Below, piece by piece: positions 11,601 to 28,762 of a stretch of 64,000 bases of DNA. This DNA is from an uncultured virus (IMG/VR IMGVR_UViG_3300044645_001931) (lineage: Duplodnaviria > Heunggongvirae > Uroviricota > Caudoviricetes): IMG/VR virus record IMGVR_UViG_3300044645_001931. The stretch is one strand, 5' to 3'. The position numbers and the translations under genes were made by a program. How positions within the stretch are numbered: position 1 is the first letter of the stretch; every line of letters starts with the position of its first letter. The notes under the pieces were generated by a model, which was given only the letters and a program-made list of their open reading frames with translations, ran no database searches and had not been told where the DNA came from.

Positions 11601-11622
11601 CTTGATGCGAGCGTCATCACAA

Positions 11623-12336: not shown

Positions 12337-12339
12337 GGT

Positions 12340-12453
12340 TCAGTTGAATTGAGTTTGAAACTTGTTGAAGAGATAGGTCAGCGCTATGCCAGCCGCTGCC
12401 CAAAGCAAGTCTTTCATCACCGGAAGTACGGCGGCAAACAAAGATTCAAACAT
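12340..12453 (-). CDS. Small membrane peptide (37 aa)
   Basis: MFESLFAAVLPVMKDLLWAAAGIALTYLFNKFQTQFN, preceded by the pseudoknot and leader motif. Confidence 0.55.
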   Translation of the reverse strand: MFESLFAAVLPVMKDLLWAAAGIALTYLFNKFQTQFN

Positions 12454-12525
12454 GGTGTGGTGTTGAGATGAGTGGTCAGTTTTACGTCATGACCAGGACG
12501 GCAACACTGCAGGGTTTGTGCGTGT

Positions 12526-12912
12526 TTAGTCTACCAGGCGATCAGCAATGCCGGTGAGCCCCTTGGTGGTGACCGCAACTAACTCAGCAATGTAGTCGTT
12601 CAGTGCTTCGACCTTGGCATTGACGGATTTGATTTCTTCCATCAGCTCTTCCCTGGAGGGACTCAGACCAAAGATGTCGTTGTCTTTGATGGCCTCAGGG
12701 TTGTTGGTCTTTTGGTACCGCCGGCAATCATCGTTGGTAGTGTACACAGCTTCTTGGTACATCTCTGAGACAGTTTTGAAGTCAACATTGCCGACCCCTT
12801 CGCTGCTCAAAATGTTGCAGGTATCCAAGTAAAGCTTGGCAGCAGCACGGATGTTCTTGTGGAAGAACTCCTTGTACTGTTCAGACGAAAGTCCGTAGGT
12901 GTCAATCGACAT
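12526..12912 (-). CDS. Hypothetical protein
   Basis: MSIDTYGLSSEQY... with a coiled-coil C-terminus. Confidence 0.65.
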   Translation of the reverse strand: MSIDTYGLSSEQYKEFFHKNIRAAAKLYLDTCNILSSEGVGNVDFKTVSEMYQEAVYTTNDDCRRYQKTNNPEAIKDNDIFGLSPSREELMEEIKSVNAKVEALNDYIAELVAVTTKGLTGIADRLVD

Positions 12913-13117
12913 AGCAATCACAAGCTTCTCGGAGTGCATTAATCATAAAGGTTTCTTGGCCTTCCGGACCTAGGTCGGTCCACCATTGAAGATCGGGATC
13001 TGTTTCATCCCATTCAATATGAATGGTCATGGAACCATCGTCTTCCTCAATGCATTCAATCTGTAGCTTGTTGATCGAGTCCGGATTCAATATGCCCAAT
13101 GAGGATGTGTTCTGCAT
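12902..13117 (-). CDS. Hypothetical acidic protein
   Basis: EEDDGSMTIHIEWDETDP; start uncertain. Confidence 0.55.
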   Translation of the reverse strand: MQNTSSLGILNPDSINKLQIECIEEDDGSMTIHIEWDETDPDLQWWTDLGPEGQETFMINALREACDCYVD

Positions 13118-13286
13118 AAGTTTCACAATCAGTTTTGATTTCTGCACCTAGCTTAACAAGACCCCAGTAGGTGTCTTCATCAAGTTCAAGGTGCAGTGAG
13201 TACTTGCCGTTGGATAGCATCATTTGTTTTGGAAAAGGTTTGTTGACTAACTCTGTTGCGTACTTGCGTAGATCAGGGTCAATCAT
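13056..13286 (-). CDS. Hypothetical protein
   Basis: MIDPDLRKY..., coupled to the SWIM gene stop. Confidence 0.55.
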   Translation of the reverse strand: MIDPDLRKYATELVNKPFPKQMMLSNGKYSLHLELDEDTYWGLVKLGAEIKTDCETYAEHILIGHIESGLDQQATD

Positions 13287-14224
13287 TGTTTCTTGATAGC
13301 AGACTTGAGTTGGGGCAATGCAGTACCAGGGAATGGAACGTAGCCAGCCTCCATCATATTGAAGAACAAATCCCATGCAGCATGCTGTGTAAAGATATCC
13401 TTTGGCTTGTAGGTGCGCCAATGACTGAGCGGAGCTTGTGCCCCTGAGTTTGTATACAACAATACAAAGCGTCCATCACTGATGTGATCAGCGGGTGGTG
13501 CGTACCACCAGGCAACACACTTCTCAGGTGTGCCACTGGGGCTAGCATTCCGTGCTTCGGTGCGCTTGCACAACAGCTCACGGTACTTATTGAACCAACT
13601 CAGGTGGATGCACCAGGGTTTGAATCCTTCGATCTCGGACGCAAAGTCAGATACGTTGCTGAGCTGACGCTGATACGACCCACACGAACACCAAGGTTCA
13701 CCCACGACAGGTGTGGACTGGTCAGCTTCCATGTCGCTGTCAAAATCAATGGGCCGATTCGGAAGCCGCAATCCGTCTGGTGCAACCAAATGTCCAATAT
13801 CCGTTTGGTCGGACTGGAGGAGATGGAGGACTTTGTTGGTGTCTGATACATGTATAAATTTGTCAGCCCAATGTGCCTGGAGTTTTGCATTAGATGTCAG
13901 GTGTCCGAGTGCGTGCGAGTAGTTCCATCCTTTAAACAATACGTAAGCATTGTTGTGCCATACACTAGGGCCACGATAATTAGGACCAAGATAGGAAAAG
14001 AAATCTTTGAGACGGTGGGTGTAGTTTGTATGGGCAACCTTGATTAGTTCCCTGTTGTAAGTCTGCTCACTACCATCGCGATGCACCACAAGGCAATCGT
14101 CACCTCGCAGATAAATGCCGGAGACTTCAGTGTCATCAAAATCCTGGAACGCACGCCGGATGTTTGACCGCGTGTAGATCGCCGCTTGCGCCGCGTTGAG
14201 TTCGAGTTGGGTTTGAGTTGACAT
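13283..14224 (-). CDS. SWIM-type Zn-finger protein
   Basis: WCSCGSY...WCIHL (CxC...CxH). Confidence 0.7.
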   Translation of the reverse strand: MSTQTQLELNAAQAAIYTRSNIRRAFQDFDDTEVSGIYLRGDDCLVVHRDGSEQTYNRELIKVAHTNYTHRLKDFFSYLGPNYRGPSVWHNNAYVLFKGWNYSHALGHLTSNAKLQAHWADKFIHVSDTNKVLHLLQSDQTDIGHLVAPDGLRLPNRPIDFDSDMEADQSTPVVGEPWCSCGSYQRQLSNVSDFASEIEGFKPWCIHLSWFNKYRELLCKRTEARNASPSGTPEKCVAWWYAPPADHISDGRFVLLYTNSGAQAPLSHWRTYKPKDIFTQHAAWDLFFNMMEAGYVPFPGTALPQLKSAIKKQ

Positions 14225-14242
14225 GGTTGGTGTTGAGTTGAG

Positions 14243-14434
14243 TTAGTGCTTGCGCCAGTAGTCCTGCTGGGCCTGGTCCTCCTTGGCTTTCTGGTACGCC
14301 CCTTTAGCCATCCTATACGATCCATAGATCACGGCAGCCCAGGCTGCGGGAGATGGTAACAGTAGCGCCACAGCAGCGGTGACCAGTGCCGTGGTACCAC
14401 CCACCTTAATAGCAGCTTTCTTTTCTGGTTTCAT
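14243..14434 (-). CDS. Small membrane protein
   Basis: Hydrophobic central segment. Confidence 0.55.
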   Translation of the reverse strand: MKPEKKAAIKVGGTTALVTAAVALLLPSPAAWAAVIYGSYRMAKGAYQKAKEDQAQQDYWRKH

Positions 14435-14514
14435 GTGTTGAATCCTTAACACAAATGGAAGGTTTAAGTCAAGTCTACTGTTGCAGGTAGAATAATTTGA
14501 AACAATTAAATCCC

Positions 14515-14748
14515 ATGTTGCAGTTTGAAATGGGTCCAGAAGAAGCCTTCTGGCAAGAAAAGATGATACGTTCCATTAAAGAATGCAATTCAATGAGTGA
14601 GTTAAAAGAAATGGCGACCTTGCTTACGAAGATCGCCACGATGCGTCAAGTTGCAATCAAAGGTTTAGTAAAGGATGCCATGGACTTGATGAGCAATCAA
14701 GTTGACCGTGACATCCTGAACAGACTCAGAGACTCTGGTCCTCAATAA
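14515..14748 (+). CDS. Hypothetical protein
   Basis: TAGAAT upstream; helical 77 aa ORF. Confidence 0.55.
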   Translation: MLQFEMGPEEAFWQEKMIRSIKECNSMSELKEMATLLTKIATMRQVAIKGLVKDAMDLMSNQVDRDILNRLRDSGPQ

Positions 14749-15199
14749 GGTAAGCCCAATTGCGTGCTTCCCAATAACTGATTGCGTTTTGACTACACTG
14801 ATATAAATCAGCAATTTTTTGCTGACTCATCCCAGTTGTTCGCAACTCTTTCATTTGATTTAATTGTTCAAGCGTAAAAATCCTCCTTGGTTTTCGTCGC
14901 ATTCGATTGCGATTGATTGCATCTTGTACGTTATCTGCTTGTGTACCAGGTAACAAATGCAAAGGATTACAACATGCTGGATTATCACAAGTATGTCTAA
15001 TGACAATACACGGATTTAAGCAATAGTTGTAATGATGCTCGTAGCTCCAACGATGCGCAAGAATGGGTTTTTGATTTCGTTTAGGATAACCATAACCATC
15101 TCTGTGCCAACGTTTACCTACGTAAGGCCAGCAGGAAGAAAGACCCCCGGAGGGGTCGATCATTCCAAGCAAATCAATAGATGTATTTGCTTTTGTCAT
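14726..15199 (-). CDS. HNH homing endonuclease with C-terminal HTH
   Basis: CWPYVG..DGYG, AHRWSY, HTCDNPACCNPLHL..GTQADN; AT-rich. Confidence 0.85.
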   Translation of the reverse strand: MTKANTSIDLLGMIDPSGGLSSCWPYVGKRWHRDGYGYPKRNQKPILAHRWSYEHHYNYCLNPCIVIRHTCDNPACCNPLHLLPGTQADNVQDAINRNRMRRKPRRIFTLEQLNQMKELRTTGMSQQKIADLYQCSQNAISYWEARNWAYLIEDQSL

Positions 15200-16320
15200 T
15201 AGAGCAAACTAGCATCCTCACCAGTAAGTTCGTTACGTGCAGGCAATGCTTTTACATTAACTGCATTTGTTTCATCTGTTACATCAGTAGTACGAGAGAC
15301 AGGCAGAATCTGTACACCCTCTTTGATTCCGTAGGCACCACCAAGACGCTGCGCATCTAGACGAGAGTGTTGATTAATGTAATCCTCAAACATCTCTTGG
15401 CACTTCCAAGTTGATTCACGATCTTCATCAGGAATCGAAAGACGGCCCAATGATGCAACTGCATCTTCTTGGGAGCTGTAATCAGGAATGTCAAAGGATT
15501 CGATAGCGCAAATCTCAACGTTGTTGGCACCACGCATCTCATTAGCAAGCACAGGGATAAACACTGTGGTGGCATAAAACTTTTCGTTGAATGCTAGGGG
15601 CACTTCAGCTCCCAGTGCTTTGCTCAAACACTTAGACATTTCTTTTTCATACAGCTTGACTTTATCGGATACGTCAGTACCATTCAATCCCTTGAGGGTA
15701 AGAACCATCGGGATCTTGTGAGCACGCTTGTTGTCTTGAGTCAGAATGTACACAAGGTACTTTGTACGTACACTGTACTTACGCTTGTACATCTCGCCTT
15801 TGCTGTTGGCAAGGTCGGATGCAATCTTGTCGTTTTCAAACAAAGCTTTGGCTTCTGGATCCTCAAAGGTTCCAATCGTCTGCCTCATCCCTGTGGTTTC
15901 TTCCACCATCAGGGGAGAACGCAACAAGATTTGTACGCGTGGCTCAGTAAAGTTCAAGCCTTCTTCAACGGAAGTATTGGGTGCCATGCCAAAGGTTTGC
16001 TTGTAATCCCAGATGACAGAGCCTTTGGTAAACTCATCTTCTGTTGCAGTCCATCCACAAGTATCCAGATCGGATTTGCGGACAAACCAACCACGTACTT
16101 TAGATTTATTTAAAGGTTGGATCGTGACAATACCTTGGTAGCCAGTGATAAACTCTTTGGACTGGAACATCCGGAAGGAGTCAAGTCCACGAGATGCAAG
16201 CGCAGAAGTTTTCTTGGTGGTCATTTTGTTAGAGGTTTTCAGAGAAGGCGCAGAAGTGGTCTCGGATTCAAGTTGATCCATCCACTGATCACTCATCATG
16301 TCAAGCGGAGTTTGCGTCAT
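15199..16320 (-). CDS. DUF5895-like protein (next to SSB; possibly recombination or ssDNA related)
   Basis: PRVQILLRSPL and H.IPMVLTLKG motifs recalled from cyanobacterial DUF5895; start revised to follow the pseudoknot at 16341-16368. Confidence 0.55.
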   Translation of the reverse strand: MTQTPLDMMSDQWMDQLESETTSAPSLKTSNKMTTKKTSALASRGLDSFRMFQSKEFITGYQGIVTIQPLNKSKVRGWFVRKSDLDTCGWTATEDEFTKGSVIWDYKQTFGMAPNTSVEEGLNFTEPRVQILLRSPLMVEETTGMRQTIGTFEDPEAKALFENDKIASDLANSKGEMYKRKYSVRTKYLVYILTQDNKRAHKIPMVLTLKGLNGTDVSDKVKLYEKEMSKCLSKALGAEVPLAFNEKFYATTVFIPVLANEMRGANNVEICAIESFDIPDYSSQEDAVASLGRLSIPDEDRESTWKCQEMFEDYINQHSRLDAQRLGGAYGIKEGVQILPVSRTTDVTDETNAVNVKALPARNELTGEDASLL

Positions 16321-16373
16321 GATTTTTTCGTAGTCAGGAGTAAGCAGTTTAACGTCATGCTCAGGACGAATCA

Positions 16374-16613
16374 TCATTCTGCTTCAGGCTTGTCCCATTC
16401 CATTACGTACTGCTGAGTACGTAATGAATCGAAATATGCCTCAGAAGACTCCTTCATGCATTCAAAGATACTGCTTTCCATGTAGCCACAACCCTTGAGA
16501 AAATCCACAAGGTGATTGATTACATCGTCAGCAACAAGAGCTTTGAATTCATACAGAAGCTTAGTGTGCTCATCCTCATAGAGGAGAGTGAACTGATCAT
16601 GCGTCGGTGTCAT
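16374..16613 (-). CDS. Hypothetical protein
   Basis: FVDFLKGCGY-like motif (HLVDFLKGCGY); start uncertain. Confidence 0.55.
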   Translation of the reverse strand: MTPTHDQFTLLYEDEHTKLLYEFKALVADDVINHLVDFLKGCGYMESSIFECMKESSEAYFDSLRTQQYVMEWDKPEAE

Positions 16614-16827
16614 TGGTTTGTTCGATGTATTGTTGACGAACAAGGCAAAAAATGTTTGCGAGCATATAAGAAGCTTTAGCAATTTTTCCAATTGCTTCTG
16701 AAATATCTATATCTTCTTCCTTGGCATTTTCCATTGCATAACTTATGTTCTCCATAAAGAACTCGTAAGCAATAGCGTCTTCTAAGGAAAGAAGATCTTG
16801 TTCTTGTAAATCAAGTTGAAGAGGCAT
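16597..16827 (-). CDS. Hypothetical protein
   Basis: 76 aa ORF directly after ssb. Confidence 0.5.
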   Translation of the reverse strand: MPLQLDLQEQDLLSLEDAIAYEFFMENISYAMENAKEEDIDISEAIGKIAKASYMLANIFCLVRQQYIEQTNDTDA

Positions 16828-16830
16828 GGA

Positions 16831-17649
16831 TCAGAATGGAGGTTCGTTGTCATCAAAGTTAGGTGCGCTGCCGTACTGACCAGGGAGATCAGGCAGGCCA
16901 CCACCTGAGGCTTGGGTCCAAGGATCCACTGGTTCTTCAGCGGTCTTGCCTCCCCATAGGCTAGCAACGTTATCGGTGGATGCCACGGTTGTCTGGGATG
17001 CCACAGATTTCGATTGAGACTCACCGCTCTTAGGAGCCAGTGTCATCTGCACCAACTGAATCTTGGTGATGCTACGACGCTGCTGGGAGTCTTTGTCCGT
17101 CCATGCGTCAGTAACCAGACGACCACGGATGGTGATGCCTGTTCCTTTACGCGTAAAATTAACCAGTAGTTCAGCTTGGTTTAACTTATCTTGTGCCGTG
17201 TTAATGGCATAGAAGTTAAACAGATCAGCTTGGTTACGACCAGTGTTAACAGAGATAGTTTGATTGGCAATCATCAAGCCATCTGCTGTTGTCTTGAAGG
17301 CACGTGCATCAGTTTGATCAATGTCTTTGATGCAACGTCCAGTCAAGATGACGTCGTTGAGGACAGGGAATGCTTCAGTAACTTGAGCAATAACTCCTCC
17401 ATGGAGCGAGTACGCCTTTGATTCCAAATCAAACCGTAACTTGGCGCCGTGAATGTAGATACGGCTTCCTTTGGAAAAGTCTTTGAATCGGTCGCAGGCT
17501 TTCCCGTAAACATGGAAGGTTAGAAGTGTGGGAGCTTTGTTGCCAACAGGCGGAAGCATTACTTCCGCACAGAGATTAGATGAAGTTGCACTGGTGTATA
17601 CCTCACGAGGATTCTCGTTAAGGATGGCGCAAACGTCAACGTAATTCAT
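16831..17649 (-). CDS. ssb: Single-stranded DNA-binding protein, apparently with two OB folds
   Basis: KGSRIYIHG and RKGTGITIRGRLVTDAWTDK; acidic tail DDNEPPF. Confidence 0.8.
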   Translation of the reverse strand: MNYVDVCAILNENPREVYTSATSSNLCAEVMLPPVGNKAPTLLTFHVYGKACDRFKDFSKGSRIYIHGAKLRFDLESKAYSLHGGVIAQVTEAFPVLNDVILTGRCIKDIDQTDARAFKTTADGLMIANQTISVNTGRNQADLFNFYAINTAQDKLNQAELLVNFTRKGTGITIRGRLVTDAWTDKDSQQRRSITKIQLVQMTLAPKSGESQSKSVASQTTVASTDNVASLWGGKTAEEPVDPWTQASGGGLPDLPGQYGSAPNFDDNEPPF

Positions 17650-17703
17650 GAGATCAGATGTGAAGTGTTAAAGCAGTTTAACGTCATGCTTAGGACGTTT
17701 TAC

Positions 17704-19563
17704 TTAGTGGGTTTCAGCCCATGAGGATCCTACACGAGAGTCGCCTTCGATCTCGCATTGGAACCCAAAGAATTTCTGTGCTTGTGGGAATGCACGCATA
17801 GCTTGATCCCTGATGCGCTCAGTGTGTTGCGGTTTACAAACAATCTGCACTTCATCGTGCACCATCAAGACTTGTTCCCACTCTGCCCCATGGGGCAGAG
17901 ATAGGGCAGACTCAATGTTGTTATGAATGTTAATAACAACTTGTTTCATCAGGATTGCACCTGCTGATTGCAACAACACATTCAATCCCTTGAATGCAGA
18001 ACGACAATACAAGATACGTTTATCTAATCCAATGAGATAGCCACGATGTGCAATGTAACTGTCGATCTGTTGCTTTAGTTTCTTCAATGCTGGCACACCA
18101 GTCATGAATGAATTAATTGCAGTTCTTCCTAGTTCACGCAGAACTTCTTCATCTTTTTCATTCGGATCCACAATGCTGCCAGCCTTGAGGTGACCAGCGC
18201 CATACAACACGGCATACAGCAAACGCTTGCTGATGTCCCTGGTAGCCACACCAAAACGCTCTTGGTTATATACGTGGATATCAATCTCTGGATCTGTTAC
18301 AACACGTGCGTATTCACCGCCATCCCACAAGGCAAGATAGCCAGCAAGACAACGCAGCTCCAATGCTTTGGCATCAATACCGATCATGTCCCATCCTTGT
18401 GGCGCATGAAATAATGACCGACATTCTTTGCCGTATGGCGAATAACCCGCTGGCACCTGACCCATATTTGGGTATCGGTGAGCACAACGACCAGTGACGC
18501 AGCCGTTAGTAATAACGTCACCGTGCATACAACCGCTGTCATTATTAACCAGCTTGAGCCAAGCGTTGTTGCCATCTGCAATTTGACCAAGACGTTTCTG
18601 GATGAGCATGTATTCTGCCAGAGGCTTGGCTTCTGGATAAGGCAAAGCCTCTAACACTTCATCATTAAGGATTGGATTTCCTTTTTCAGTTGTCTTTTCT
18701 GGTTCCCATCCGTACTTAGCCTTAAGTCGATTAACAATCTGGTCACGAGATCCAGGATTGAATTCTTCATGCCGCACTTTTTCAAAGGGCACTCCTTTGA
18801 CATAGCCACGTTTTTGATTGTTGACCTTGGGAGTAAACCAAGTGCGGTGCTCAAGTGGTGGAAAAATTTCTTTTAGATGTGTTTCAAGTTCTGTTTGTTT
18901 TGCTCGGAGATCATCCACAAGATCAAGACATGCATCCACATCAAAAGGAACACCTGCTCTAATTTGTTTGTTAATGGCGAGAGCAAAGTCGTGCTCAAGC
19001 TTGAGAGCTGGTTCTGGATAGTTTTCTTTAACGATGTGCGCCCAAAGTTTTGTTGTAACTGCAACGTCTTGTTTGCAGTATTCCAACATCTCCTCAGAAT
19101 ATTCCGAGAAGTCTTTGAAGCTGATCTTGTGATCGGCCAGTCTCCATCCCCATGCCTTAAGGGATGCAGCACCTCGCTGGTTCGGTGGAACCTGCGGATA
19201 TTGTTCGATGTCAAGGTCATAGAGTTTCTCCTTGGGCCAGATCAATCGTGTGCAGATGAGTGTGTCAATGATGCGTGATTTGCAGTCAAATGAATGCAGC
19301 TTTTGCAGAACTGGTACGTCATAAAAACAAATGTTATGGCCTATCAAAACATCAGCGGTTGCCAGATGAGCAATAGCATCAGTAATGCGATCAGGCCCAT
19401 AACTAAAAGTTTGGTTGGCTGTGATGTCATAGATCACAATGCAATGGATCTTGGTAACCTTGTCATAAAGACCATCACTCTCGAGGTCAAAGACAAGGTA
19501 CCGATCATTTACGGAACCTGGATTCATCTTGAATTGAGAGTTCTTTACAGGCAAGGTCTTCAT
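17704..19563 (-). CDS. polA: Family A DNA polymerase (T7-like) with 3'-5' exonuclease
   Basis: ExoI FDLESDG, motif A DAKALELR, motif B RDISKRLLYAVLYG, motif C VHDE. Confidence 0.95.
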   Translation of the reverse strand: MKTLPVKNSQFKMNPGSVNDRYLVFDLESDGLYDKVTKIHCIVIYDITANQTFSYGPDRITDAIAHLATADVLIGHNICFYDVPVLQKLHSFDCKSRIIDTLICTRLIWPKEKLYDLDIEQYPQVPPNQRGAASLKAWGWRLADHKISFKDFSEYSEEMLEYCKQDVAVTTKLWAHIVKENYPEPALKLEHDFALAINKQIRAGVPFDVDACLDLVDDLRAKQTELETHLKEIFPPLEHRTWFTPKVNNQKRGYVKGVPFEKVRHEEFNPGSRDQIVNRLKAKYGWEPEKTTEKGNPILNDEVLEALPYPEAKPLAEYMLIQKRLGQIADGNNAWLKLVNNDSGCMHGDVITNGCVTGRCAHRYPNMGQVPAGYSPYGKECRSLFHAPQGWDMIGIDAKALELRCLAGYLALWDGGEYARVVTDPEIDIHVYNQERFGVATRDISKRLLYAVLYGAGHLKAGSIVDPNEKDEEVLRELGRTAINSFMTGVPALKKLKQQIDSYIAHRGYLIGLDKRILYCRSAFKGLNVLLQSAGAILMKQVVINIHNNIESALSLPHGAEWEQVLMVHDEVQIVCKPQHTERIRDQAMRAFPQAQKFFGFQCEIEGDSRVGSSWAETH

Positions 19564-19738
19564 CGTTTTCGTTAATCCAAGTCAAGATCTGTTGCGCCCC
19601 TGCCCGATAAGGATGGGAAAAGATCTTGTTCAAAGCTACATCAGAGTCTAGTGGAATGAGTTCAAATTGATTGGCTTCACCGTTAGCGGTGATGGCATGT
19701 GGTGTGCCCCACCGCCAACAAGCAATGACGTAACTCAT
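19505..19738 (-). CDS. Hypothetical protein
   Basis: 77 aa ORF upstream of polA. Confidence 0.6.
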   Translation of the reverse strand: MSYVIACWRWGTPHAITANGEANQFELIPLDSDVALNKIFSHPYRAGAQQILTWINENDEDLACKELSIQDESRFRK

Positions 19739-19801
19739 GGGATCAAATGAAAGACGGATGCATACTATCCGATTTCACTTGATCCGCAAGAGGCTACAGA
19801 T

Positions 19802-20563: not shown

Positions 20564-20642
20564 GGTGTTGAGTTGAATTGATTGATAAGCGGAGCTTATG
20601 AGTAGTTTAAGGACGTGCTCAGGTCCATCTTCCCGTTCGAAA

Positions 20643-20939
20643 TTATTGCAGTTGACTACAGCCTTTAAAAGGCTCACGTGATAAACGAATTACTATCTGA
20701 TCACCTGAATCAGGAACTTCTGATGGACCCTGGTGCACCAAGATCTCCCATATGTTTCTGTTGATTTTCATAATGGAGTTGCAATAGTTTGTCATCAAGA
20801 CTTCTTTATCTTGCCCTGGTTTATAGGACAAAACTTTTTTGTGAATGCCAAGTGGTTCATCCTGATTGTCTTTCGTGTAGGAAGCAACCCAATAACTAGA
20901 TGAACGTGTGTGTTGTTTGGTGGAGCTAAATCCTTTCAT
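20643..20939 (-). CDS. Hypothetical protein
   Basis: 98 aa ORF. Confidence 0.6.
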   Translation of the reverse strand: MKGFSSTKQHTRSSSYWVASYTKDNQDEPLGIHKKVLSYKPGQDKEVLMTNYCNSIMKINRNIWEILVHQGPSEVPDSGDQIVIRLSREPFKGCSQLQ

Positions 20940-21130
20940 TAGTCTGTAAGTTGTTTTAAAAGTGCATGCATATTTTTATCTTCTGTGCATTTAGCAAGAC
21001 CAGAAAGAACAACGTAGGCTACCCAACCTGGAAACAATAACCCAATAAAACCAAGGACAAAAAGGAAAAATCTTCCTTTGATACCCATTGCTTTGTTGAA
21101 CTCTTTGCAGGTTTCTGAAATAGAGATCAT
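20939..21130 (-). CDS. Small membrane protein
   Basis: Long hydrophobic stretch; AT-rich. Confidence 0.55.
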   Translation of the reverse strand: MISISETCKEFNKAMGIKGRFFLFVLGFIGLLFPGWVAYVVLSGLAKCTEDKNMHALLKQLTD

Positions 21131-21204
21131 GGTTGTGTTACAGGATAAACAACATCATATACATCAATAGTCATATACTTTCCGTATCAATAGATACTAA
21201 AGCC

Positions 21205-21357
21205 ATGACGTTAACGTATCGTGGTTGCAAATACAACCAAGAGGATCAGGCCAAGGCAGACAAGGCATGGTGGAATTTAGCACACCGTCCATGGCTTTGC
21301 CTGACCTACCGTAACATCTGCTACTTTCCTTACGTCACTGGAGGACAAATCAAATGA
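21205..21357 (+). CDS. DUF4278-like small protein
   Basis: MTLTYRGCKY start and a second LTYR, typical of this cyanobacterial family. Confidence 0.6.
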   Translation: MTLTYRGCKYNQEDQAKADKAWWNLAHRPWLCLTYRNICYFPYVTGGQIK

Positions 21358-21582
21358 ACAAGGCACTGATCGTCTACTTGGTGGACAGACGGAAAAAGCT
21401 GGCACGCAAGGATGTGGAGTCCAAGCATGCCGTCACGGAACTGAAGAAGCAAAGTGCTGCAACCTTTTAATTAGGTTGAGGTGTTTTGATATGGAGGCAT
21501 GAGGTCTCCATTCTCATCAATGATGCCAGCTTCCATAAGAAACTGGCGTGCTTGCTCTGGTTCTTTGTATCTCTCAATCAGA

Positions 21583-22224
21583 TCATTGATCTGTTGAGAA
21601 CACAGCCTCTCCGATGATTGGGAATTCTTTGCAGAAGATTCCTTTGATTGCTTCTGCAATTTCTCTGTGTTCGAGTTGGGTTGATTCATGCGTCCTCAGT
21701 TGTAGGTAATGGATCCAAGATCTGATAGTGCCGTTCATGAAGAGACGGGTCTGTGTTGAAAGTGGCAGGATGGACCTGGCACATTCTTTTGCAACGCCGC
21801 TGCTAACCATCTCGCGGTAGAGATGTTCAGCGTCTTCATACAACTTGCTAATGCGGCGGTAATAACCACTGATTGCATCAGCAGACAAATCATCAATACT
21901 GTTTTGACGATTCTTAAAGTCTTGTCGACGCAGATGAGGAATAATAGCTGAGCCAAGTTCACTGGTATCTGCGTAACGTTGACTGAATTCTTGGAACGAG
22001 AATGAACGATGCCTAAGTATTTGCGGTGAGATTGCACGTGTTGTGTTGATTTCAACACACATGTTGGCCATCTCGTACGGTGACCAGTGCTGATGTTTAA
22101 TCAGATAACGCAACAACTTGGGTGCGGTATCCATGTTGTCTTGGTTCTTGGGTGCAGAAACGCGTGCCATGCGCGTGATCATCTCTTCTGCATTGGGCGT
22201 TGCCCAAACAAGTTGTACGTTCAT
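21583..22224 (-). CDS. thyX: Flavin-dependent thymidylate synthase
   Basis: HWSPYE, RHRSFSFQEFSQRY, GVAKECARSILP and HESTQLEHR. Confidence 0.95.
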   Translation of the reverse strand: MNVQLVWATPNAEEMITRMARVSAPKNQDNMDTAPKLLRYLIKHQHWSPYEMANMCVEINTTRAISPQILRHRSFSFQEFSQRYADTSELGSAIIPHLRRQDFKNRQNSIDDLSADAISGYYRRISKLYEDAEHLYREMVSSGVAKECARSILPLSTQTRLFMNGTIRSWIHYLQLRTHESTQLEHREIAEAIKGIFCKEFPIIGEAVFSTDQ

Positions 22225-22430
22225 GAGCACTTAAGGAAGTAATGCCAGCGAGATGTGGGATCAGTGTAACGGATTACTGAACAACCTTCGTACTGATCAA
22301 TGACTTCAAACTTAGAGTTGTTCTTAGGTTCATCAGGTGACAAAAAAATTGCAGCGATTAAACCAGTAGCTGCAAAGGCAAGGATTGTTGCAGAGCAACC
22401 ACGAAGAAATTGAATTTGATTTTCAGTCAT
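22221..22430 (-). CDS. Small membrane-anchored protein
   Basis: N-terminal hydrophobic helix. Confidence 0.55.
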   Translation of the reverse strand: MTENQIQFLRGCSATILAFAATGLIAAIFLSPDEPKNNSKFEVIDQYEGCSVIRYTDPTSRWHYFLKCS

Positions 22431-22431
22431 G

Positions 22432-22731
22432 TCATTCACCAGGAACAAGGACTTCTTTGGTCAGACGTTCTAGCGCTGACACAGGACAGATGCGTGCAGT
22501 GGCATGTTCAGTTGGGCTAGGTAAATGATCCCAACGAACAAGCAAGAACTTTTGGGTAGCACCACGTGAGTTGTTCTTGTAGTTGATGCCAACCACTTCA
22601 CCGTACCGCTGGCTCCTGTACTGAGAGATGCGTTCTCTTGTTTGTTGGTTGTTTGTGTAGATCCCATGGGGTTTGGGACGTTCAGCAACACGGTCACCAA
22701 TCTTGTAATCAAACTGTCGCTTGGTTGTCAT
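22432..22731 (-). CDS. Hypothetical protein (SH3-like pattern)
   Basis: YKIGDRV...GEVVG...LVRWD. Confidence 0.6.
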   Translation of the reverse strand: MTTKRQFDYKIGDRVAERPKPHGIYTNNQQTRERISQYRSQRYGEVVGINYKNNSRGATQKFLLVRWDHLPSPTEHATARICPVSALERLTKEVLVPGE

Positions 22732-23063
22732 TTGATGTTGGTGTAAGTTTTGTAGTTGACAATACGTGAGATTGTACTGCGAGCAGTGTCATAGCGGATT
22801 GCTATCTGACCATTGCTCAATCCTTTCTGATGTAGATGACGAATCATCAATACATCATTGTCAGTTAAGAAGGAGTTTCCATTCCTGGTACCAATAGGTT
22901 TGTAAGCTTTCAATGGAATTGGTTTAGCAACTTCGTACCGTTCAACAGTACGGTACTTGCAACCACAATCAAGACAACGACAATAACGTTTGGTTACATC
23001 AGATCCCAGATGTTCAGTACAAGTAACGCGTGTGTTACTACTGTTGCATTGTCTACAGTTCAT
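22728..23063 (-). CDS. NrdR/Ogr-like Zn ribbon fused to an HTH
   Basis: MNCRQC...RYCRCLDCGCKYRTVE plus GLSNGQIAIRYDTARSTISRI. Confidence 0.65.
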   Translation of the reverse strand: MNCRQCNSSNTRVTCTEHLGSDVTKRYCRCLDCGCKYRTVERYEVAKPIPLKAYKPIGTRNGNSFLTDNDVLMIRHLHQKGLSNGQIAIRYDTARSTISRIVNYKTYTNIK

Positions 23064-23355
23064 CTTCGGTAAGGTTCAATGAATGAAGTAGTTCAAGACA
23101 ATTGACTTCGCCCATGATCTTAAATGCATCTGCAATCAGTTCATGCGATAACGCAGGAAGTTCGTAGTAGTCGTACAAGATTTCTTCTGCACGATCAAAG
23201 TCATCATAAGAACCAGTCAGATGTTGGATCACGGAGCCAGGCATGTTATCAACCAAGGCTGTAACAATTGCTTGTCTCACTTGAGTCCAAGCATGCTCTG
23301 GTATCAATGCAACGGTCTTGTCGACAAGGTCGAGATCAATGGAGTCGTGTGTCAT
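23053..23355 (-). CDS. Hypothetical protein
   Basis: 100 aa acidic ORF. Confidence 0.6.
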   Translation of the reverse strand: MTHDSIDLDLVDKTVALIPEHAWTQVRQAIVTALVDNMPGSVIQHLTGSYDDFDRAEEILYDYYELPALSHELIADAFKIMGEVNCLELLHSLNLTEDEL

Positions 23356-23402
23356 AGAGAAAGACCCCCGCTTGCGCAGGGGCCGAACATTCCGCTAGTA
23401 CC

Positions 23403-23765
23403 TTAGGCAGGATTTGCGTCGGTGTCAATGAACTTGTCATAGAGACCAGCATCTTTAAGGCGCTCAAGCATCCCACACATCATGGTGGCATGGGCTTGCG
23501 TGGTCTCCATGAAGTGCCGTGCTCGTTCTGCTGAGATCACATGGACGTTGCCATTGGGTTCGACGTACTTCCATGAGCCATCGGGCTGTGGCTCACCCTG
23601 GAGCGCAAGCTTCTCAGAGTTACGGACGTACCGCATTTCAAGGTTGTGGTAGTCACGCAGACCTTCGTTGTCGGTCCAGGTAGCACCAATGTTGTAACGC
23701 TTGTCCTCATCTGCATAAGCATGGAACTCAGGGATGATGGACTTAAAAGCAGCAAAGAATTGCAT
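23403..23765 (-). CDS. Hypothetical early protein
   Basis: 120 aa ORF preceded by the hairpin motif and CAACTCAAC leader. Confidence 0.7.
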   Translation of the reverse strand: MQFFAAFKSIIPEFHAYADEDKRYNIGATWTDNEGLRDYHNLEMRYVRNSEKLALQGEPQPDGSWKYVEPNGNVHVISAERARHFMETTQAHATMMCGMLERLKDAGLYDKFIDTDANPA

Positions 23766-23834
23766 GATGTTGAGTTGGAGGTAAGTTGTTAGCCAGGGAC
23801 TTACACTTTAGAGATGCCCAGGTTAATCAAATTT

Positions 23835-24032
23835 TTAAGGCTTTTCAGTTTGAGCAGCAAGCTTAGATAATTTAGAGTCTATGTCATATAAATTAGAGTT
23901 AATCTCTTTCAGTTCAATTGTTATAGCGCTAAGTGAACTTGCAACATCATTTAATACTGCCAGTTCGCATGCAATCATTTTAGCGCTAGCACGAATGCAA
24001 TCACGCAAAAACATTCCTTGATCTTGATTCAT
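23835..24032 (-). CDS. Hypothetical coiled-coil protein; AT-rich
   Basis: 65 aa ORF directly after tRNA-Leu. Confidence 0.5.
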   Translation of the reverse strand: MNQDQGMFLRDCIRASAKMIACELAVLNDVASSLSAITIELKEINSNLYDIDSKLSKLAAQTEKP

Positions 24033-24059
24033 TTTAGTTAAGTAAAAAGTTTAATGGGT

Positions 24060-24135
24060 TGGTAGCCGACCTCGGATTTGAACCGAGACTTGACGGAGCT
24101 TAAATCCGTTGCCTCTGCCGTTGGGCTAGTCGGCC
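24060..24135 (-). tRNA. tRNA-Leu(UAA) with a short variable loop and encoded CCA
   Basis: GGCCGAC...ACGGA-TT TAA GC-TCCGT-CAAGT-CTCGG-TTCAAAT-CCGAG-GTCGGCT-A-CCA. Confidence 0.85.
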
Positions 24136-24335
24136 TCACTTGGACTTACGTCAATTGAATCTGACTGCCAAGTGTGGTCTTGAGGTAGGACTTCCATTCC
24201 GTAAGTCCAGCTATCGTAGTCATCCTCATTACGAGGATCTTCTTCAATCAGGATGTACTGTGGTGAGTTGTCTGTGATGTATTCACCAATGTTGGCCATG
24301 GCCATGGCAAGGAGCTGATCATCGGTGTAGTCCAT
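24126..24335 (-). CDS. Hypothetical acidic protein
   Basis: 69 aa ORF whose end overlaps the tRNA 5' end. Confidence 0.55.
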   Translation of the reverse strand: MDYTDDQLLAMAMANIGEYITDNSPQYILIEEDPRNEDDYDSWTYGMEVLPQDHTWQSDSIDVSPSEAD

Positions 24336-24384
24336 AGGTAAAGAGGCATCCCATTTACGAGGATAGGATGCCCCTGCTGTGGCT

Positions 24385-26100
24385 TCAGCTCTTAGAGCTT
24401 AGCTCATCATTCCGAGATTGCAAGGCCAGCTTGAATGCATTGGAATATCTCTCCTTTTGATCCTCGTCCAATCGCTGGTTGCCAACGCCAGCAATCTGTA
24501 TCACATTCATAACACCCATTGATACATCCAGTTGGATTGTAAAGGTTGGCTTACCATCAATCATGCAGAGCACAATAAAGTGCTTGCGTTTCTTGATGTT
24601 CTCTGCATACTGGGACGCAGAGCCAACACAGTTACGGACAGCTTGCCCCCATTGTGCTAGCTGATGGGTATCAATGGGTTGGAGGAATGTCCAGTCACTG
24701 TCACCCATGTTGACCTTGACAGGTGTAGGGAATAAATCCTGGTGCAGCGATTCTTTCTTGTTAGCTATCTTCCATGCTTCTGCTTGCACATAGTCATGGA
24801 AGTCAGGCATGCGCCAACGCTTAGGTGCTTCGATAGTCTTGTCGTTCTCAAAGATACGCATCATCATTGAGAACGTGTCATTCATCTCATACCATGCATG
24901 GATAATAAAGTCGTGATCAGATAGCGAAGAGATCCGGCGATGCTCTTCATTTGATTTCTCAACATGCTTGCGCATCATATTGAGGAATGATGTAACAGAC
25001 ATGTGCTCACGCAACCAAGTAAGCAAGGTATCGTTGGTACGTAGGTGATTGAGATTAACGACACGCAGTTCTTCAAAGTATGTACGGTAGTGATCAAGTG
25101 GGCAATCAGGCCACACATGATTAATGAAGTAGATAGAGTTTGTCGTTTGTTCAAACTCTTTGTAGCCATACTTGACTGCCTTACGCTGATTGTTCTCAGG
25201 GTTATTGTATTCAGCTACAGATTTGTCAAGCATAAGTTGAAGTTGCTTCTTGATAGAAGGTGCAGTAATAATGTGTTCAATATTCTGTATGGTTATGTAG
25301 GTTGTCGATACATAATTATTCTTAGCTGTCCATGCATTAGCAAGGCTGACCATACCATCAACCGTTAACTTAAACGCTGAACGATCTTCAATGCAGTTTG
25401 TTAATGCAGATGGAAACTCAAGTGCATCAAGAAGACTCTTGCATTTAATGCGCTCAAACATAGAACGACAATCGTCCCATGTTGGAATTGTTTCCATCAA
25501 GGTTTTCTCAAAGCTATTGATTGCGTCATTCATATCACGTGACTTCTGGTAGTAACTAGCTATACCCATGGCACGCCAGTTGCGTGCATCATTACCAGCG
25601 ATAACATCTTCTTTGGTTATAGTACGTGAATATGTAAAGGTTTGTGCGCCACGTCCAATGTTGTGTTCGGTGCACTGATCTTTAGTATTCCAGATGTGAC
25701 GAGGAACTACCTTAGCTGCAGCCGCAGTGTTCTTAAATGCATAGGCATAGCCATAAAGGTAGTCCTCTCCCTTGGCAGGTAACCATGCTGCGTACCAGCA
25801 TTGCTCGAAGTGATAGAGAACTGCAATGGTAATCGTACGTGCTTGTGGTGTAGCAATATCAACAACCTTGGTAAAGCGGTGATAACGCTCAGATACACCT
25901 GATGCATTGATGCGATCAATCGCATCTTGTTGATAGCCAGCACGTACCACATTCTCAGGGATAAGATGTGGAATATTACCCAGTGGATACTTAGCTTTCT
26001 TCGTAGTCTTCTTAGGTTCCTGCTCTTTGACCAAAGCCTTGAGCTTTGGATCGTAGGCAAGCAGTTCTTGTTGCAGGTTGGAGGGGAGTTGGAAGTACAT
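24385..26100 (-). CDS. PcfJ-like domain protein
   Basis: C-terminal FHD...LAQWGQAVRNCVGS...FTIQL...IQIAGVGN. Confidence 0.75.
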   Translation of the reverse strand: MYFQLPSNLQQELLAYDPKLKALVKEQEPKKTTKKAKYPLGNIPHLIPENVVRAGYQQDAIDRINASGVSERYHRFTKVVDIATPQARTITIAVLYHFEQCWYAAWLPAKGEDYLYGYAYAFKNTAAAAKVVPRHIWNTKDQCTEHNIGRGAQTFTYSRTITKEDVIAGNDARNWRAMGIASYYQKSRDMNDAINSFEKTLMETIPTWDDCRSMFERIKCKSLLDALEFPSALTNCIEDRSAFKLTVDGMVSLANAWTAKNNYVSTTYITIQNIEHIITAPSIKKQLQLMLDKSVAEYNNPENNQRKAVKYGYKEFEQTTNSIYFINHVWPDCPLDHYRTYFEELRVVNLNHLRTNDTLLTWLREHMSVTSFLNMMRKHVEKSNEEHRRISSLSDHDFIIHAWYEMNDTFSMMMRIFENDKTIEAPKRWRMPDFHDYVQAEAWKIANKKESLHQDLFPTPVKVNMGDSDWTFLQPIDTHQLAQWGQAVRNCVGSASQYAENIKKRKHFIVLCMIDGKPTFTIQLDVSMGVMNVIQIAGVGNQRLDEDQKERYSNAFKLALQSRNDELSSKS

Positions 26101-26158
26101 AATGAAGTTGGAGTTGAGTTGAGTATAGGTAGTTTAACGTCATGCCCAGGACGGTTGA

Positions 26159-26410
26159 TTAGCGGATCTCTTTTAACTGACGCAAGAGTTCTTCGTCAGT
26201 CTCATCACCTTCCCATGGACCAATGCGTTGGTCGCAGCAATAAGTACCGTACTTCACGTCATCATCGTTAATGATATTGTGAAGACTGACACTGCGTCCA
26301 TTAGCAAAGACTGGCATGCGTTTAGCAAAGCCAGTTGCCAAATACACTCGACCCTTGGGACCACGCAGTACAAAGTACCAGCGTTTGAATTCAATTGAGA
26401 AGCCAATCAT
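26159..26410 (-). CDS. Hypothetical protein
   Basis: Coupled ORF. Confidence 0.55.
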   Translation of the reverse strand: MIGFSIEFKRWYFVLRGPKGRVYLATGFAKRMPVFANGRSVSLHNIINDDDVKYGTYCCDQRIGPWEGDETDEELLRQLKEIR

Positions 26411-26658
26411 TCGTAATCACTCAGATCGAGTAGTTGCCAGAGAGGATCGAGTTGATCAAGATAGCTGCAGAAGCCATCTTCGTCAAGAGGAATCGGTTCC
26501 TCTGGATCCAACTCAATAGTTGTTGTGCACAATGCAGGAGCCCACTCTTCAGGGTCGAAGCGAGTCGCCCGATAGAGCAGGCGCATGTCGTCAACAACTG
26601 CTGTAACTGTGACATGAGTTTGTGTGAAGTAAGTATCTTCGATTGCAAGGACTGTCAT
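26407..26658 (-). CDS. Hypothetical protein
   Basis: VTAVVDDMRL..RAT.FDPEEWAPALC. Confidence 0.6.
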   Translation of the reverse strand: MTVLAIEDTYFTQTHVTVTAVVDDMRLLYRATRFDPEEWAPALCTTTIELDPEEPIPLDEDGFCSYLDQLDPLWQLLDLSDYE

Positions 26659-26843
26659 CAGTTGTCCTCCACGTAGGAATGGTGGGTGGTTTTGATGAGG
26701 CGGTACTTCATCCACAGACGTGCTGTGTCGTACTCGCCATTGAATCGTGTTTCATCTAAAACATTTGCACTTGCTCTGCGCTTTGCGCAGTCAGCAAGAT
26801 TGATGCGATCAAACATGTTGAGATAGTCGACGTAAGCAGACAT
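26658..26843 (-). CDS. Hypothetical protein
   Basis: Start MSAYVDY follows the leader motif. Confidence 0.55.
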   Translation of the reverse strand: MSAYVDYLNMFDRINLADCAKRRASANVLDETRFNGEYDTARLWMKYRLIKTTHHSYVEDN

Positions 26844-26903
26844 GAGTTGAGTTGAATTGGTGGACAAGACCTGGGACTTACACCGTAAGGATGCCCAGGA
26901 TCT

Positions 26904-27101
26904 TTAGATTAACTTAATGTTTGGGATGCTCAAGCCTGTGCCAGGGATACTGACTGATCCTTTGACGCCATTGGGACTGGCGTTGACAGTCAGTTGGAAT
27001 GGTCCAAGCTTGATCTGTTTACTTACTGACTTGATACCATGTTCAGTGATGTTCACACCATGAATGGTGCGATCAAAACTAATGGGAGATTTCTTGGTCA
27101 C
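26904..27101 (-). CDS. DUF4236-like small protein
   Basis: GVKGSVSIPGTGLS motif. Confidence 0.55.
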   Translation of the reverse strand: MTKKSPISFDRTIHGVNITEHGIKSVSKQIKLGPFQLTVNASPNGVKGSVSIPGTGLSIPNIKLI

Positions 27102-27441
27102 TTGATAATTTTCCGTGGATTTTTAAATGACATTCTTTGCATAGAGGTTCTACCCATAGTGGGTAGTCATAGTTGGGGTGATGGTATTCTTCTGCATGTT
27201 TATCACAATCTGTGCATAAAAATACAGAAGGACGAGGCCAAGTGCCTCGTCTGATCCTAGCTCCAATCCTGTCGCTTGCTCTATATCTTTTAGAGGCTTC
27301 AGGATCTTTACGTTTGTGATCAGGATTAGCACTCTTCCACAATCGTTTCTGCTCTCTTAATCTTTCACGATTTTCGATCGCATATTTACGATTGTATTCT
27401 TTGTGATAAGCTTTACGCTTATCAAGATCTTTGTGTGGCAT
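27079..27441 (-). CDS. HNH-like endonuclease; AT-rich
   Basis: CTDC...EYHHPNYDYPL.VEPLCKECHLKIH. Confidence 0.7.
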   Translation of the reverse strand: MPHKDLDKRKAYHKEYNRKYAIENRERLREQKRLWKSANPDHKRKDPEASKRYRASDRIGARIRRGTWPRPSVFLCTDCDKHAEEYHHPNYDYPLWVEPLCKECHLKIHGKLSSDQEISH

Positions 27442-27650
27442 TACTTCAAATCTTCAGGAGTCAATAGTTCAGCATCTTCAGGAGAAAGATTAGTCATAAT
27501 GAATTTTTCACCTGAGGGGGATATAAAGCCCCCGATGAAACCAATACCATGTTTCTCAGCTGATTCTTTCATCTTGGCTACAAGCTGCATAGCTTGAAGA
27601 CGTTGGATGTCAATTGAATCAGGAATGCGAGGAGTGTTTGAGTTTGTCAT
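27441..27650 (-). CDS. Hypothetical protein
   Basis: 69 aa ORF with the leader motif. Confidence 0.6.
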   Translation of the reverse strand: MTNSNTPRIPDSIDIQRLQAMQLVAKMKESAEKHGIGFIGGFISPSGEKFIMTNLSPEDAELLTPEDLK

Positions 27651-27823
27651 GTGAGTTGAATTGATGTGTGGTCTAGAAGACTGTGTAAGTCTACCAGGGT
27701 ATGCAAGTACTGAAGCATGTATTAAGAGATGTAATGCATAGGAAGTACTTATGTATATAGAAGGGTCCCCCCTGGTTCTCCTTGGGGGAGTGTGAGGGGG
27801 GAATACATGTGTACTACCTGATG

Positions 27824-28111
27824 TTATCGATGCATTTCCTGGTGTTCTTTCCAGGCAGCTGCATGCATTTCTGCTGCAGTGATGGGTGGTTCACCAGGTT
27901 CGTTAGGTGTTGGATCGTAGTCGATCTCATCTTCTAGCATGCCGATTACCTCATCGATAACGTCACGCATGTGTGGATCGAGATGCTCGTCCATCTGATG
28001 ACGCTTATCTTCGCGAGCACAGATAGCTTTGAGTGCATCAACTACTAGTTGCAGTTGATGATACTCATTCTTGGTCCAGTCAATTGCTGGATACTTCTTA
28101 GCTTGTTCCAT
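27824..28111 (-). CDS. Hypothetical early protein
   Basis: 95 aa ORF preceded by the pseudoknot and leader. Confidence 0.65.
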   Translation of the reverse strand: MEQAKKYPAIDWTKNEYHQLQLVVDALKAICAREDKRHQMDEHLDPHMRDVIDEVIGMLEDEIDYDPTPNEPGEPPITAAEMHAAAWKEHQEMHR

Positions 28112-28167
28112 GGTTGAGTTGATGGTGAGTAGGATGGACTGAGCAGTTTAAGGACATACTTAGGTCC

Positions 28168-28395: not shown

Positions 28396-28516
28396 AAACC
28401 TGGGACTTATGCATCGTACTTACGTAGGTGCTGCCCAGGATTGAGGCTATGACTGAAGTATTGGCATGTATTCGCTATTTGCGAATAGCGAACAATACTA
28501 CGGCACTGTTATAACG

Positions 28517-28759: not shown

Positions 28760-28762
28760 TGA

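Follow-up and report, generated by a model that had tools for sequence, protein, structure and literature searches.

A predicted 28-nt RNA pseudoknot recurs between genes of a cyanophage, of unrelated phages and of some bacteria

What is one short sequence doing six times between the genes of a cyanophage? The DNA in question, called the window at its full length of 64,000 nucleotides (nt), comes from an uncultured virus (IMG/VR record IMGVR_UViG_3300044645_001931). It is that of an S-EIV1-like cyanophage: in the polymerase/ssb region, 76% of its nucleotides are identical to those of Synechococcus phage S-EIVl, which was the sole match when the window was compared with isolate phages by megablast. 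A preliminary description of this DNA had reported six 28-nt copies of a motif on the minus strand, and read them as a small H-type RNA pseudoknot in the leaders of early and replication genes. The six sequences prove exact at all six coordinates, and all of them fall within the minus-strand block of replication genes. Sequence comparison strongly supports a self-folding H-type RNA pseudoknot of 28 nt, and points to a portable, uncatalogued module that is common to very different phages and some bacteria.

In the window itself, a degenerate pattern with up to three mismatches finds the six copies and nothing further in 64 kb; 0.01 are expected, and none of 100 shuffles reaches six. A structure-aware covariance model, run with its filters off, scores the same six at 31.3-46.4 bits, with the runner-up in the window at 9.8 bits. 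Small pseudoknot RNAs whose unpaired bases are fixed and which are spread across phyla usually have demanding jobs. This knot takes up 28 nt, is absent from Rfam and occurs in hundreds of phage contigs, including those of well-studied Staphylococcus, Lactobacillus and mycobacterial phages.

Fold, covariation and strand

The predicted fold has the pattern ((((.[[[[[[.))))......]]]]]]. It combines a 4-bp stem 1 (NNNC/GNNN), a one-base loop 1 (C), a 6-bp stem 2 formed between the hairpin loop and the 3' tail, and one junction base; the third loop, an A-rich UUAAAC, crosses stem 1. Calculated for each helix alone, the free energy is -2.9 to -4.7 kcal/mol for stem 1 and -0.7 to -5.4 kcal/mol for stem 2. 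Neither helix is a stable hairpin by itself, and the fold is cooperative.

We scanned 80 loci around relatives of the DNA polymerase with a sequence-only matrix that is blind to pairing. It returned 124 copies, 63 of them distinct, on the gene strand throughout except for two weak matches. In the distinct copies 93.8% of the paired cells hold a pair, against 79.3% in column shuffles, none of 500 of which reaches the observed value; the seed set of the matrix had been picked for pairing, which biases the make-up of the columns, and both the shuffles and the slides described below keep that same make-up. Both sides change in eight of the ten pairs. Sliding the partners by 1-3 columns lowers pairing to 19-47%. 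Individual pairs illustrate the exchange: pair 9-25 is G-C in 44 copies, U-A in 10, A-U in 6 and G-U in 3, with no copy unpaired, and pair 8-26 is G-C in 33 and A-U in 29.

An independent scan of viral contigs used an exact pattern in which positions 1, 2, 15 and 16 (stem 1), 9 (loop) and 24-28 (tail) were free. Among the matches listed, stem 1 is complete (4/4) in 134 of 150 and stem 2 (6/6) in 100 of 150. Over 157 distinct motifs we count 115 G.U against 20 A.C oppositions. This excess of G.U shows that it is the sense strand that folds, in keeping with RNA; sequence alone does not separate RNA from sense single-stranded DNA.

Stem 1 takes many forms. They include CGUC, GGAC, CGAC, CAAC, UAUC and GCUC, each with its complement, and, among the matches listed from the viral contigs, GCUC/GAGU, UCUC/GAGA, UAUC/GAUA, AAUC/GAUU and CUUC/GAAG. 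Synechococcus phage S-EIVl has seven copies, with AGUC/GACU, UGUC/GACA and GGUC/GACC among its stems. The preliminary description had preferred an H-type pseudoknot to an operator on duplex DNA, a choice that could fall with a larger alignment. It is borne out by the covariation of both helices over the 63 distinct copies, by the many forms of stem 1 and by the excess of G.U.

Two other candidates were rejected. An NtcA-like or other palindromic site for a dyad-binding protein on duplex DNA is ruled out because GUC..GAC and GAC..GUC occur within one genome. A frameshift or read-through signal fails at copies 2, 3 and 5, which have no in-frame slippery heptamer before them and whose downstream open reading frames (ORFs) are out of frame or behind in-frame stops.

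Gene context, spread and catalogued relatives

In the window the distances from the knot to the next ATG are 19, 20, 20, 35, 25 and 28 nt for copies 1-6 (20-35 nt in the preliminary description). The genes that follow are likewise those named before, namely a 37-amino-acid (aa) ORF ahead of a Sipho_Gp157-like gene, DUF5895, SSB, GP88, PcfJ-like and a 95-aa ORF. Five copies had been placed just after an upstream stop codon; for copies 1-5 this distance is 25, 5, 6, 16 and 5 nt. Short extra hairpins (AACCCUGCAGGGUU; UUCCCGAACGGGAA) stand between stop codon and knot upstream of copies 1 and 4, which are the two with long stop-to-knot spacers; they recur at orthologous sites in many relatives (L005-L028). 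Copy 6 has no same-strand ORF upstream and adjoins the ATG (28168) of a plus-strand ORF.

To place these values in a wider frame, the viral matches were re-fetched with 2-kb flanks, which gave 149 non-redundant instances. Sixteen of them, in which stem 1 fell short of 3/4 or stem 2 of 5/6, were dropped, and 133 were kept as structure-valid; the counts in this and the next paragraph hold among the matches listed. Most of the long ORFs within 1 kb share the strand of the knot in 69 loci and have the opposite one in 5; at the remaining loci the flank was too short. Where an upstream ORF is present (111 instances), the spacer between stop and knot is most often 5 nt (32 instances), measures 6-9 nt in 28 and 3-4 nt in three, and never shrinks to 0-2 nt or to an overlap. 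The same holds after grouping by flank similarity into 72 clusters: 36 of the 61 with an ORF have a spacer of 5-9 nt, and two have 3-4 nt.

On the downstream side, the distance from the knot to the first ATG of an ORF of at least 50 aa sets in abruptly at 19 nt. Counts at 19, 20, 21 and 22 nt are 5, 12, 6 and 11, and a second peak of 14 stands at 28 nt; 67 of 113 distances fall within 15-34 nt, and five are below 19 nt. Where the flanks are complete, 22 knots have both neighbours close by and 9 have neither. The helicase site of the ribosome lies about 11 nt from the P-site codon, and the 5' edge of the initiation footprint near -20. From these positions, 5 nt past a stop and 19 nt before an AUG are the closest spots that escape unwinding. 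The geometry may thus reflect selection for a knot that stays folded in translated polycistronic RNA, and its exactness (stop, 5 nt, knot, at least 19 nt, AUG) makes the question testable with simple reporters.

The preliminary description had tied the element to the early and replication genes of this phage, which is too narrow: unrelated phages, scaffold genes, transfer RNA (tRNA) genes and bacterial leaders carry it as well. The nearest record (G001) added one more copy. The pattern scan of viral contigs found at least 144 matching stretches, some of them in contigs of 111-183 kb and many with ordinary Shine-Dalgarno sequences. A 31-nt BLAST query of one copy matched 165 records of isolate phages at the permissive E limit of 10 (85 Staphylococcus, 27 Vibrio, 9 Lactobacillus, 5 Streptococcus and others). 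The covariance model confirms the site in all five isolates that were checked: Staphylococcus phage B166 (29.8 bits), T4-like cyanophage S-H35 (38.7 bits), Mycobacterium phage Labelle (40.2 bits), Bacillus phage Edson (30.7 bits, with a linker 2 nt longer) and crAss-like cr7_1, which has two copies (37.9 and 30.2 bits), one with CAAC/GUUG. The hosts of knot-bearing phages are Firmicutes, Actinobacteria, Proteobacteria, Cyanobacteria and Bacteroidota. Copy number is one or two in the five isolates as against six to eight in the S-EIV1-like lineage, and stays low in large genomes (one copy in 234 kb, one or two in 174 kb). A single case comes from a distant marine phage (L069): its one copy has a CAUC/GAUG stem and is separated by 190 nt from the ORF that follows.

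The downstream genes are as varied as the phages. Scaffold genes of two unrelated families follow the knot, PF06810 in L392 and DUF4355 in Staphylococcus phage B166; the wide set further includes ferritin-like/Dps-like, HNH-AP2, SH3, LysM and DUF4192 genes, next to the SSB, PcfJ, GP88 and DUF5895 genes of the cyanophage set. In several unrelated contigs a tRNA gene follows instead: ARAGORN places tRNA-Asn, tRNA-Gly and tRNA-Ser 4 nt after structure-valid knots, and tRNA-Arg 10 nt after one. Searches with 221-nt-flank queries matched the tRNA part alone, or nothing. The site of Staphylococcus phage B166, upstream of its scaffold gene, is at L352 1503-1539, equivalent to KP893289.1 21047-21083. 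In four Staphylococcus phage records the knot site is labelled 'promoter', solely by BPROM prediction, a label that may mistake an RNA element for a promoter.

Bacterial genomes call for more caution. The pattern scan of genome contigs covered 596 Gb, for which hundreds of chance matches are estimated, and most of its matches are probably chance; of 124 bacterial loci we used only the 37 whose stem 1 was complete (4/4) and whose stem 2 had at least 5/6 pairs. In five metagenome-assembled genomes (MAGs; G002-G006, loci L508-L516) a conserved mini-ORF (...AHCKEGC...) with its own Shine-Dalgarno sequence ends 4 nt ahead of the knot, or the knot runs across its stop codon (e.g. L511 1300-1430 and L513 1430-1556). 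G004 has tandem pairs of knots, and genes for Rrf2 regulators or YHS-domain proteins follow downstream. The arrangement looks like an uncatalogued leader-peptide control region. TGA replaces the first Cys codon in one of eight mini-ORFs (L516); a reading of the bacterial copies as selenocysteine insertion sequences was dropped, as TGA stands at the Cys position in that one mini-ORF only.

Whether the knot matches a characterised Rfam family, a question raised in the preliminary description, was answered in the negative: in the window and 43 short loci, at gathering thresholds and at E<=10, no family reaches threshold for it. The closest are GP20-b (RF03003), with 19.2, 17.8 and 14.2 bits (L236, L238, L146) against a gathering score of 36.2, and GP20-a (RF02991), with 19.4 bits in L146 only against 47.2; the six window copies and Staphylococcus phage B166 have no match to either at E<=10. 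The sub-threshold alignments begin at the knot's first base. According to the cmscan consensus, GP20-a/b share with the knot, in the same order, a short GUC/G.C stem, a loop strand, a UAAAA/UUAAA linker and a partner strand. GP20 RNAs stand upstream of phage scaffold (GP20) genes, as does the knot in L392 (PF06810) and B166 (DUF4355); the six window copies are not upstream of GP20 or scaffold genes. Differences are that the GP20 models have a second hairpin and a longer loop 1 while the knot is a lone 28-nt unit, and that the knot precedes many other genes and tRNAs.

GP20-a and GP20-b are described, in the consulted part of PMC10690425, as candidate cis-regulatory RNAs upstream of phage GP20 genes with unknown function; the main text of the paper reporting them (PMC5737381) does not discuss them. 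The knot would be an uncatalogued relative or core of the GP20 kind, not a member, and may be among the 10,006 unnamed candidates of PMC10690425. A literature search on S-EIV1 brought up no paper about the motif.

Possible functions of the knot

Our tentative reading, possible though short of probable, is that the knot is a self-contained boundary or barrier element, by which polycistronic RNA is divided into units that decay and are translated separately. It would occupy the shortest gap that allows folding, just outside the terminating ribosome upstream and the initiating ribosome downstream, and would there form a physical barrier to machinery moving along the RNA. Blocked from upstream would be 5'-3' decay by RNase J and scanning RNase E; blocked from downstream, 3'-5' exonucleases; sliding post-termination ribosomes would be held up as well. 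The flanking cistrons, or a messenger RNA (mRNA) and a tRNA, would then decay and be translated independently, the tRNA being freed by RNase P 4 nt downstream of the knot. This role is physically plausible because a folded viral RNA halts bacterial RNase J1 as a general mechanical block, as set out in the consulted part of PMC5760640. It also fits the independence from the host, the fixed geometry, the fact that a hairpin module can take the place of the knot, and downstream genes that are arbitrary and in many cases highly expressed.

This second module consists of CCUGGGCA, a variable inner hairpin and (U/C)(G/A)UAAGUCCCAGG. Three minus-strand copies occur in the window (Table 1), with none expected by chance, and further ones in relatives (L001 41438-41476; L009 360-398, 685-714 and 1490-1519). 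It folds at -11.4 to -16.9 kcal/mol in the window and about -11 to -18 overall, and has no Rfam match. For two of the window copies a stop is 4 and 2 nt upstream and an ATG 26 and 29 nt downstream, with CA-rich leaders like those behind the pseudoknot; a T run comes after the third, which is terminator-like. As two different modules fill one architectural slot, a structural role is favoured over recognition of a specific ligand, and together with the geometry the interchangeable module favours a structural barrier over a ligand sensor. In its letters GGGCA...GUAAG the second module may resemble the promoter of a T7-like cyanophage RNA polymerase.

A host-independent barrier would explain the unequal outputs of neighbours on one transcript (scaffold vs portal, SSB vs polymerase), and would be a compact part for operon engineering. 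Several observations weigh against it. Loop-1 C (C5) and UUAAAC are near-invariant across distant hosts, where a plain hairpin would suffice as a barrier; a minor-groove triplex braces other compact H-type knots, and the constancy is explicable if C5 and UUAAAC take part in a bracing triplex here too. At some Firmicutes loci a terminator-like hairpin with a T run comes directly before the knot, which would therefore be transcribed by read-through only. At the bacterial mini-ORF loci the stop codon lies 4 nt before or inside the knot, which a terminating ribosome would have to unfold there. Nor does a tRNA require a stabiliser. Finally, 11 knots at full-flank loci, among the matches listed, are near a stop only and six near a start only, so that either neighbour may be the one that benefits.

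The exoribonuclease-resistant RNAs (xrRNAs) of flaviviruses and plant viruses are compact, pseudoknotted, protein-free folds that can stop 5'-3' exonucleases including RNase J1 (PMC5760640, in the part consulted), which is how the knot would act in the barrier reading; they differ from the knot in having about 70 nt and a ring around the 5' end, and no ring can be inferred for 28 nt. In the literature searched we found no xrRNA-like barrier element of phages. RNase III sites of T7 and the hairpins of the puf and mal operons are intercistronic structures that set the stabilities of segments in one transcript. They resemble the knot as structured elements between co-transcribed genes; they are plain hairpins or long duplexes within one operon, while the knot is cross-phylum and has fixed unpaired bases.

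A bolder version, which we consider unlikely, would make the knot a prokaryotic counterpart of xrRNAs and frameshift-type roadblocks: a minimal, triplex-braced fold free of host factors that stalls RNase J, RNase E, 3' exonucleases and post-termination ribosomes, with which phages of at least five phyla would divide operon RNA into segments that are expressed independently, as would some bacteria, where it comes after a Cys/Sec mini-ORF. If that were so, the fixed distance of 5 nt from the stop would mean that the knot touches the terminating ribosome.

First among the alternatives, though also with a small chance of being right, is a translational operator or enhancer, in which the knot would dock a protein (phage SSB, a RegA-like repressor) or the 30S subunit and so set or repress initiation on the leader. 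The order of knot, unstructured leader and AUG parallels that of T4 and T2 gene 32, where an H-type pseudoknot lies 5' of an unstructured leader ahead of phage ssb, in unusually stable mRNAs (PMC3014915, in the part consulted). One window copy heads ssb: copy 3 shows the gene 32-type layout of knot, 20-nt leader with one G, then ssb. Cyanophage leaders are G-poor and without Shine-Dalgarno sequences (in the window 57 C, 48 A, 36 T and 6 G of 147 nt, in a gene block with 21.7% G), the end of the knot coincides from 19 nt onwards with the 5' edge of the initiating ribosome, and the copy number of the S-EIV1-like lineage is regulon-like.

The T4 knot, as the same part of PMC3014915 reports, differs in that it lies 67 nt upstream of the AUG of one gene and nucleates gp32 on A+U-rich UUAA(A) repeats; window knots are 19-35 nt upstream of six different genes and occur in unrelated phages too, and their C/A-rich leaders lack repeats of the T4 type. 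Nor does the operator account easily for an identical knot with identical unpaired bases in unrelated phages and bacteria that have no obvious RNA-binding protein in common, for its position before tRNAs, or for a ribosome-binding site that the knot never overlaps.

Improbable in our view is an element acting on transcription, be it a promoter, with UAAACU as -10 and a start about 7 nt later, or a put-like RNA signal for antitermination or pausing. The position at the start of a unit, 19-35 nt before an ATG or 4 nt before a tRNA, would suit it, as would the terminator-like hairpin that sometimes directly precedes the knot, copy 6, which opens the series beside a divergent gene, and the BPROM-based 'promoter' label. 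Two crossing, covarying helices with an excess of G.U have no role in duplex promoter DNA, however, and by reading we see no conserved -35-like or extended -10 element upstream. A scan of 11000-30000 gives 17 sigma-70-like sites against 30.4 in shuffles, none of them at the copies. Large genomes have a single copy, and many copies begin 5 nt past a stop inside tight operons.

Still more doubtful is a processing signal, either cleaved by or directing a universal endonuclease (RNase P-like, through a coaxial stack of 10-11 bp), or itself a minimal self-cleaving RNA. Small ribozymes share its patchy cross-phylum spread and few copies per genome; the 4-nt spacing to tRNAs is fixed and the unpaired bases are highly conserved, although in the wide scan the invariant bases are partly fixed by the search pattern. 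In pistol ribozymes the loop of a hairpin pairs into a 6-bp pseudoknot, and a linker of the UUAAA type comes after it. The preliminary description had drawn this comparison, and it holds for the topology of the hairpin/UUAAA/pseudoknot scaffold and for nothing beyond: the tail directly follows UUAAAC, leaving no equivalent of P2/P3 or of the G-U cleavage site, and the leader behind it is unconserved. The pistol model has no match at E<=10 in the window and loci, nor has any other Rfam ribozyme family, and no base just outside the 28 nt is conserved.

A very small riboswitch, with a ligand at the stem junction (C5, base 12, C22) as preQ1 in preQ1-I, is the least probable: the H-type topology with an A-rich third loop, the conserved junction bases, the tandem in one bacterial genome (as in some small riboswitches) and the Rrf2 and YHS genes that follow in bacteria are outweighed by downstream genes with no metabolic theme (scaffold, SSB, tRNA, PcfJ, GP88), by the lack of an expression platform (the ribosome-binding site is 19 or more nt away and unpaired, and no terminator comes after the knot) and by the different hairpin in the same slot. 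No known H-type pseudoknot aptamers are smaller than the preQ1-I RNAs, in which an A-rich tail occupies the groove of stem 1; the likeness is topological only. The preQ1-I model (RF00522) has no match at E<=10; the knot's stem 2 has 6 bp, with a 1-nt junction loop and no Shine-Dalgarno sequence inside, no queuosine genes lie downstream, and the ATG is 19-35 nt off. Should the knot bind a ligand, a protein or the ribosome after all, few known elements of that sort would be as small.

Features of the window

The coordinates of the six copies, of their leaders and of other features are collected in Table 1. Copy 4 heads a unit whose first gene is of the GP88 family and whose last gene is DNA polymerase A. 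The tRNA gene on the minus strand falls inside the replication-gene block, between pseudoknot units. Opposite to the direction of that block runs a 75-aa ORF, next to copy 6, whose protein is 75-100% identical in L002, L004 and L008-L010.

Table 1 Pseudoknot copies, second-module copies and neighbouring features in the window
Feature	Position	Strand	Details
tRNA gene	6595-6666	+	70.7 bits
Sipho_Gp157-like gene	11623-12336	-	Next after the 37-aa ORF
Leader of copy 1	12454..12472	-	19 nt, without G; to ATG of 37-aa ORF (12340-12453)
Pseudoknot copy 1	12473..12500	-	Stem 1 CGUC/GACG, loop C-UGGUCA-U, linker UAAAAC, tail UGACCA; 6/6 loop-tail pairs; 43.2 bits
Extra hairpin upstream of copy 1	12501-12525	-	
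HNH endonuclease gene	14726-15199	-	Helix-turn-helix tail; directly after the DUF5895 gene
Leader of copy 2	16321..16340	-	20 nt; to ATG (16320) of DUF5895 gene (15199-16320)
Pseudoknot copy 2	16341..16368	-	5 nt past TGA of ORF 16374-16691; 46.4 bits
Leader of copy 3	17650..17669	-	20 nt, 1 G; to ATG of ssb (16831-17649)
Pseudoknot copy 3	17670..17697	-	6 nt past TAA of DNA polymerase A gene (17704-19563); 44.7 bits
Leader of copy 4	20564..20598	-	35 nt; to ATG of GP88-family gene (19802-20563)
Pseudoknot copy 4	20599..20626	-	Stem 1 swapped to GGAC/GUCC; conserved C.A in stem 2; 16 nt past stop of ORF 20643-20939; 32.4 bits
Extra hairpin upstream of copy 4	20627-20645	-	
tRNA gene	24063-24135	-	54.1 bits
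Leader of copy 5	26101..26125	-	25 nt, without G (CAACUCAAC type); to ATG of PcfJ-like gene (24385-26100)
Pseudoknot copy 5	26126..26153	-	5 nt past TAA of ORF 26159-26410; 43.1 bits
Second-module copy	26870-26899	-	
Leader of copy 6	28112..28139	-	28 nt; to ATG of 95-aa ORF (27824-28111)
Pseudoknot copy 6	28140..28167	-	GGAC/GUCC; opens the series; 31.3 bits
ORF of 75 aa	28168-28395	+	Inside the minus-strand block
Second-module copy	28399-28439	-	
Second-module copy	30275-30315	-	

Contigs from RNA libraries bridge copy 1 (X3 record 16, 12342-12574) and copy 3 (X8). They are assembled contigs from four libraries, account for small shares of the words, give neither ends nor strand, possibly include DNA and are uninformative for the parts they leave uncovered; they were not used as evidence.

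The HNH gene probably entered the replication module as a mobile insertion. In the relatives L025 (3930-6566) and L029 (10001-12637) the match to the DNA polymerase extends over 2637 nt instead of ~1857 nt, and by its length the gene appears to carry an insertion of ~780 nt, namely an intein, an intron or a homing-endonuclease gene.

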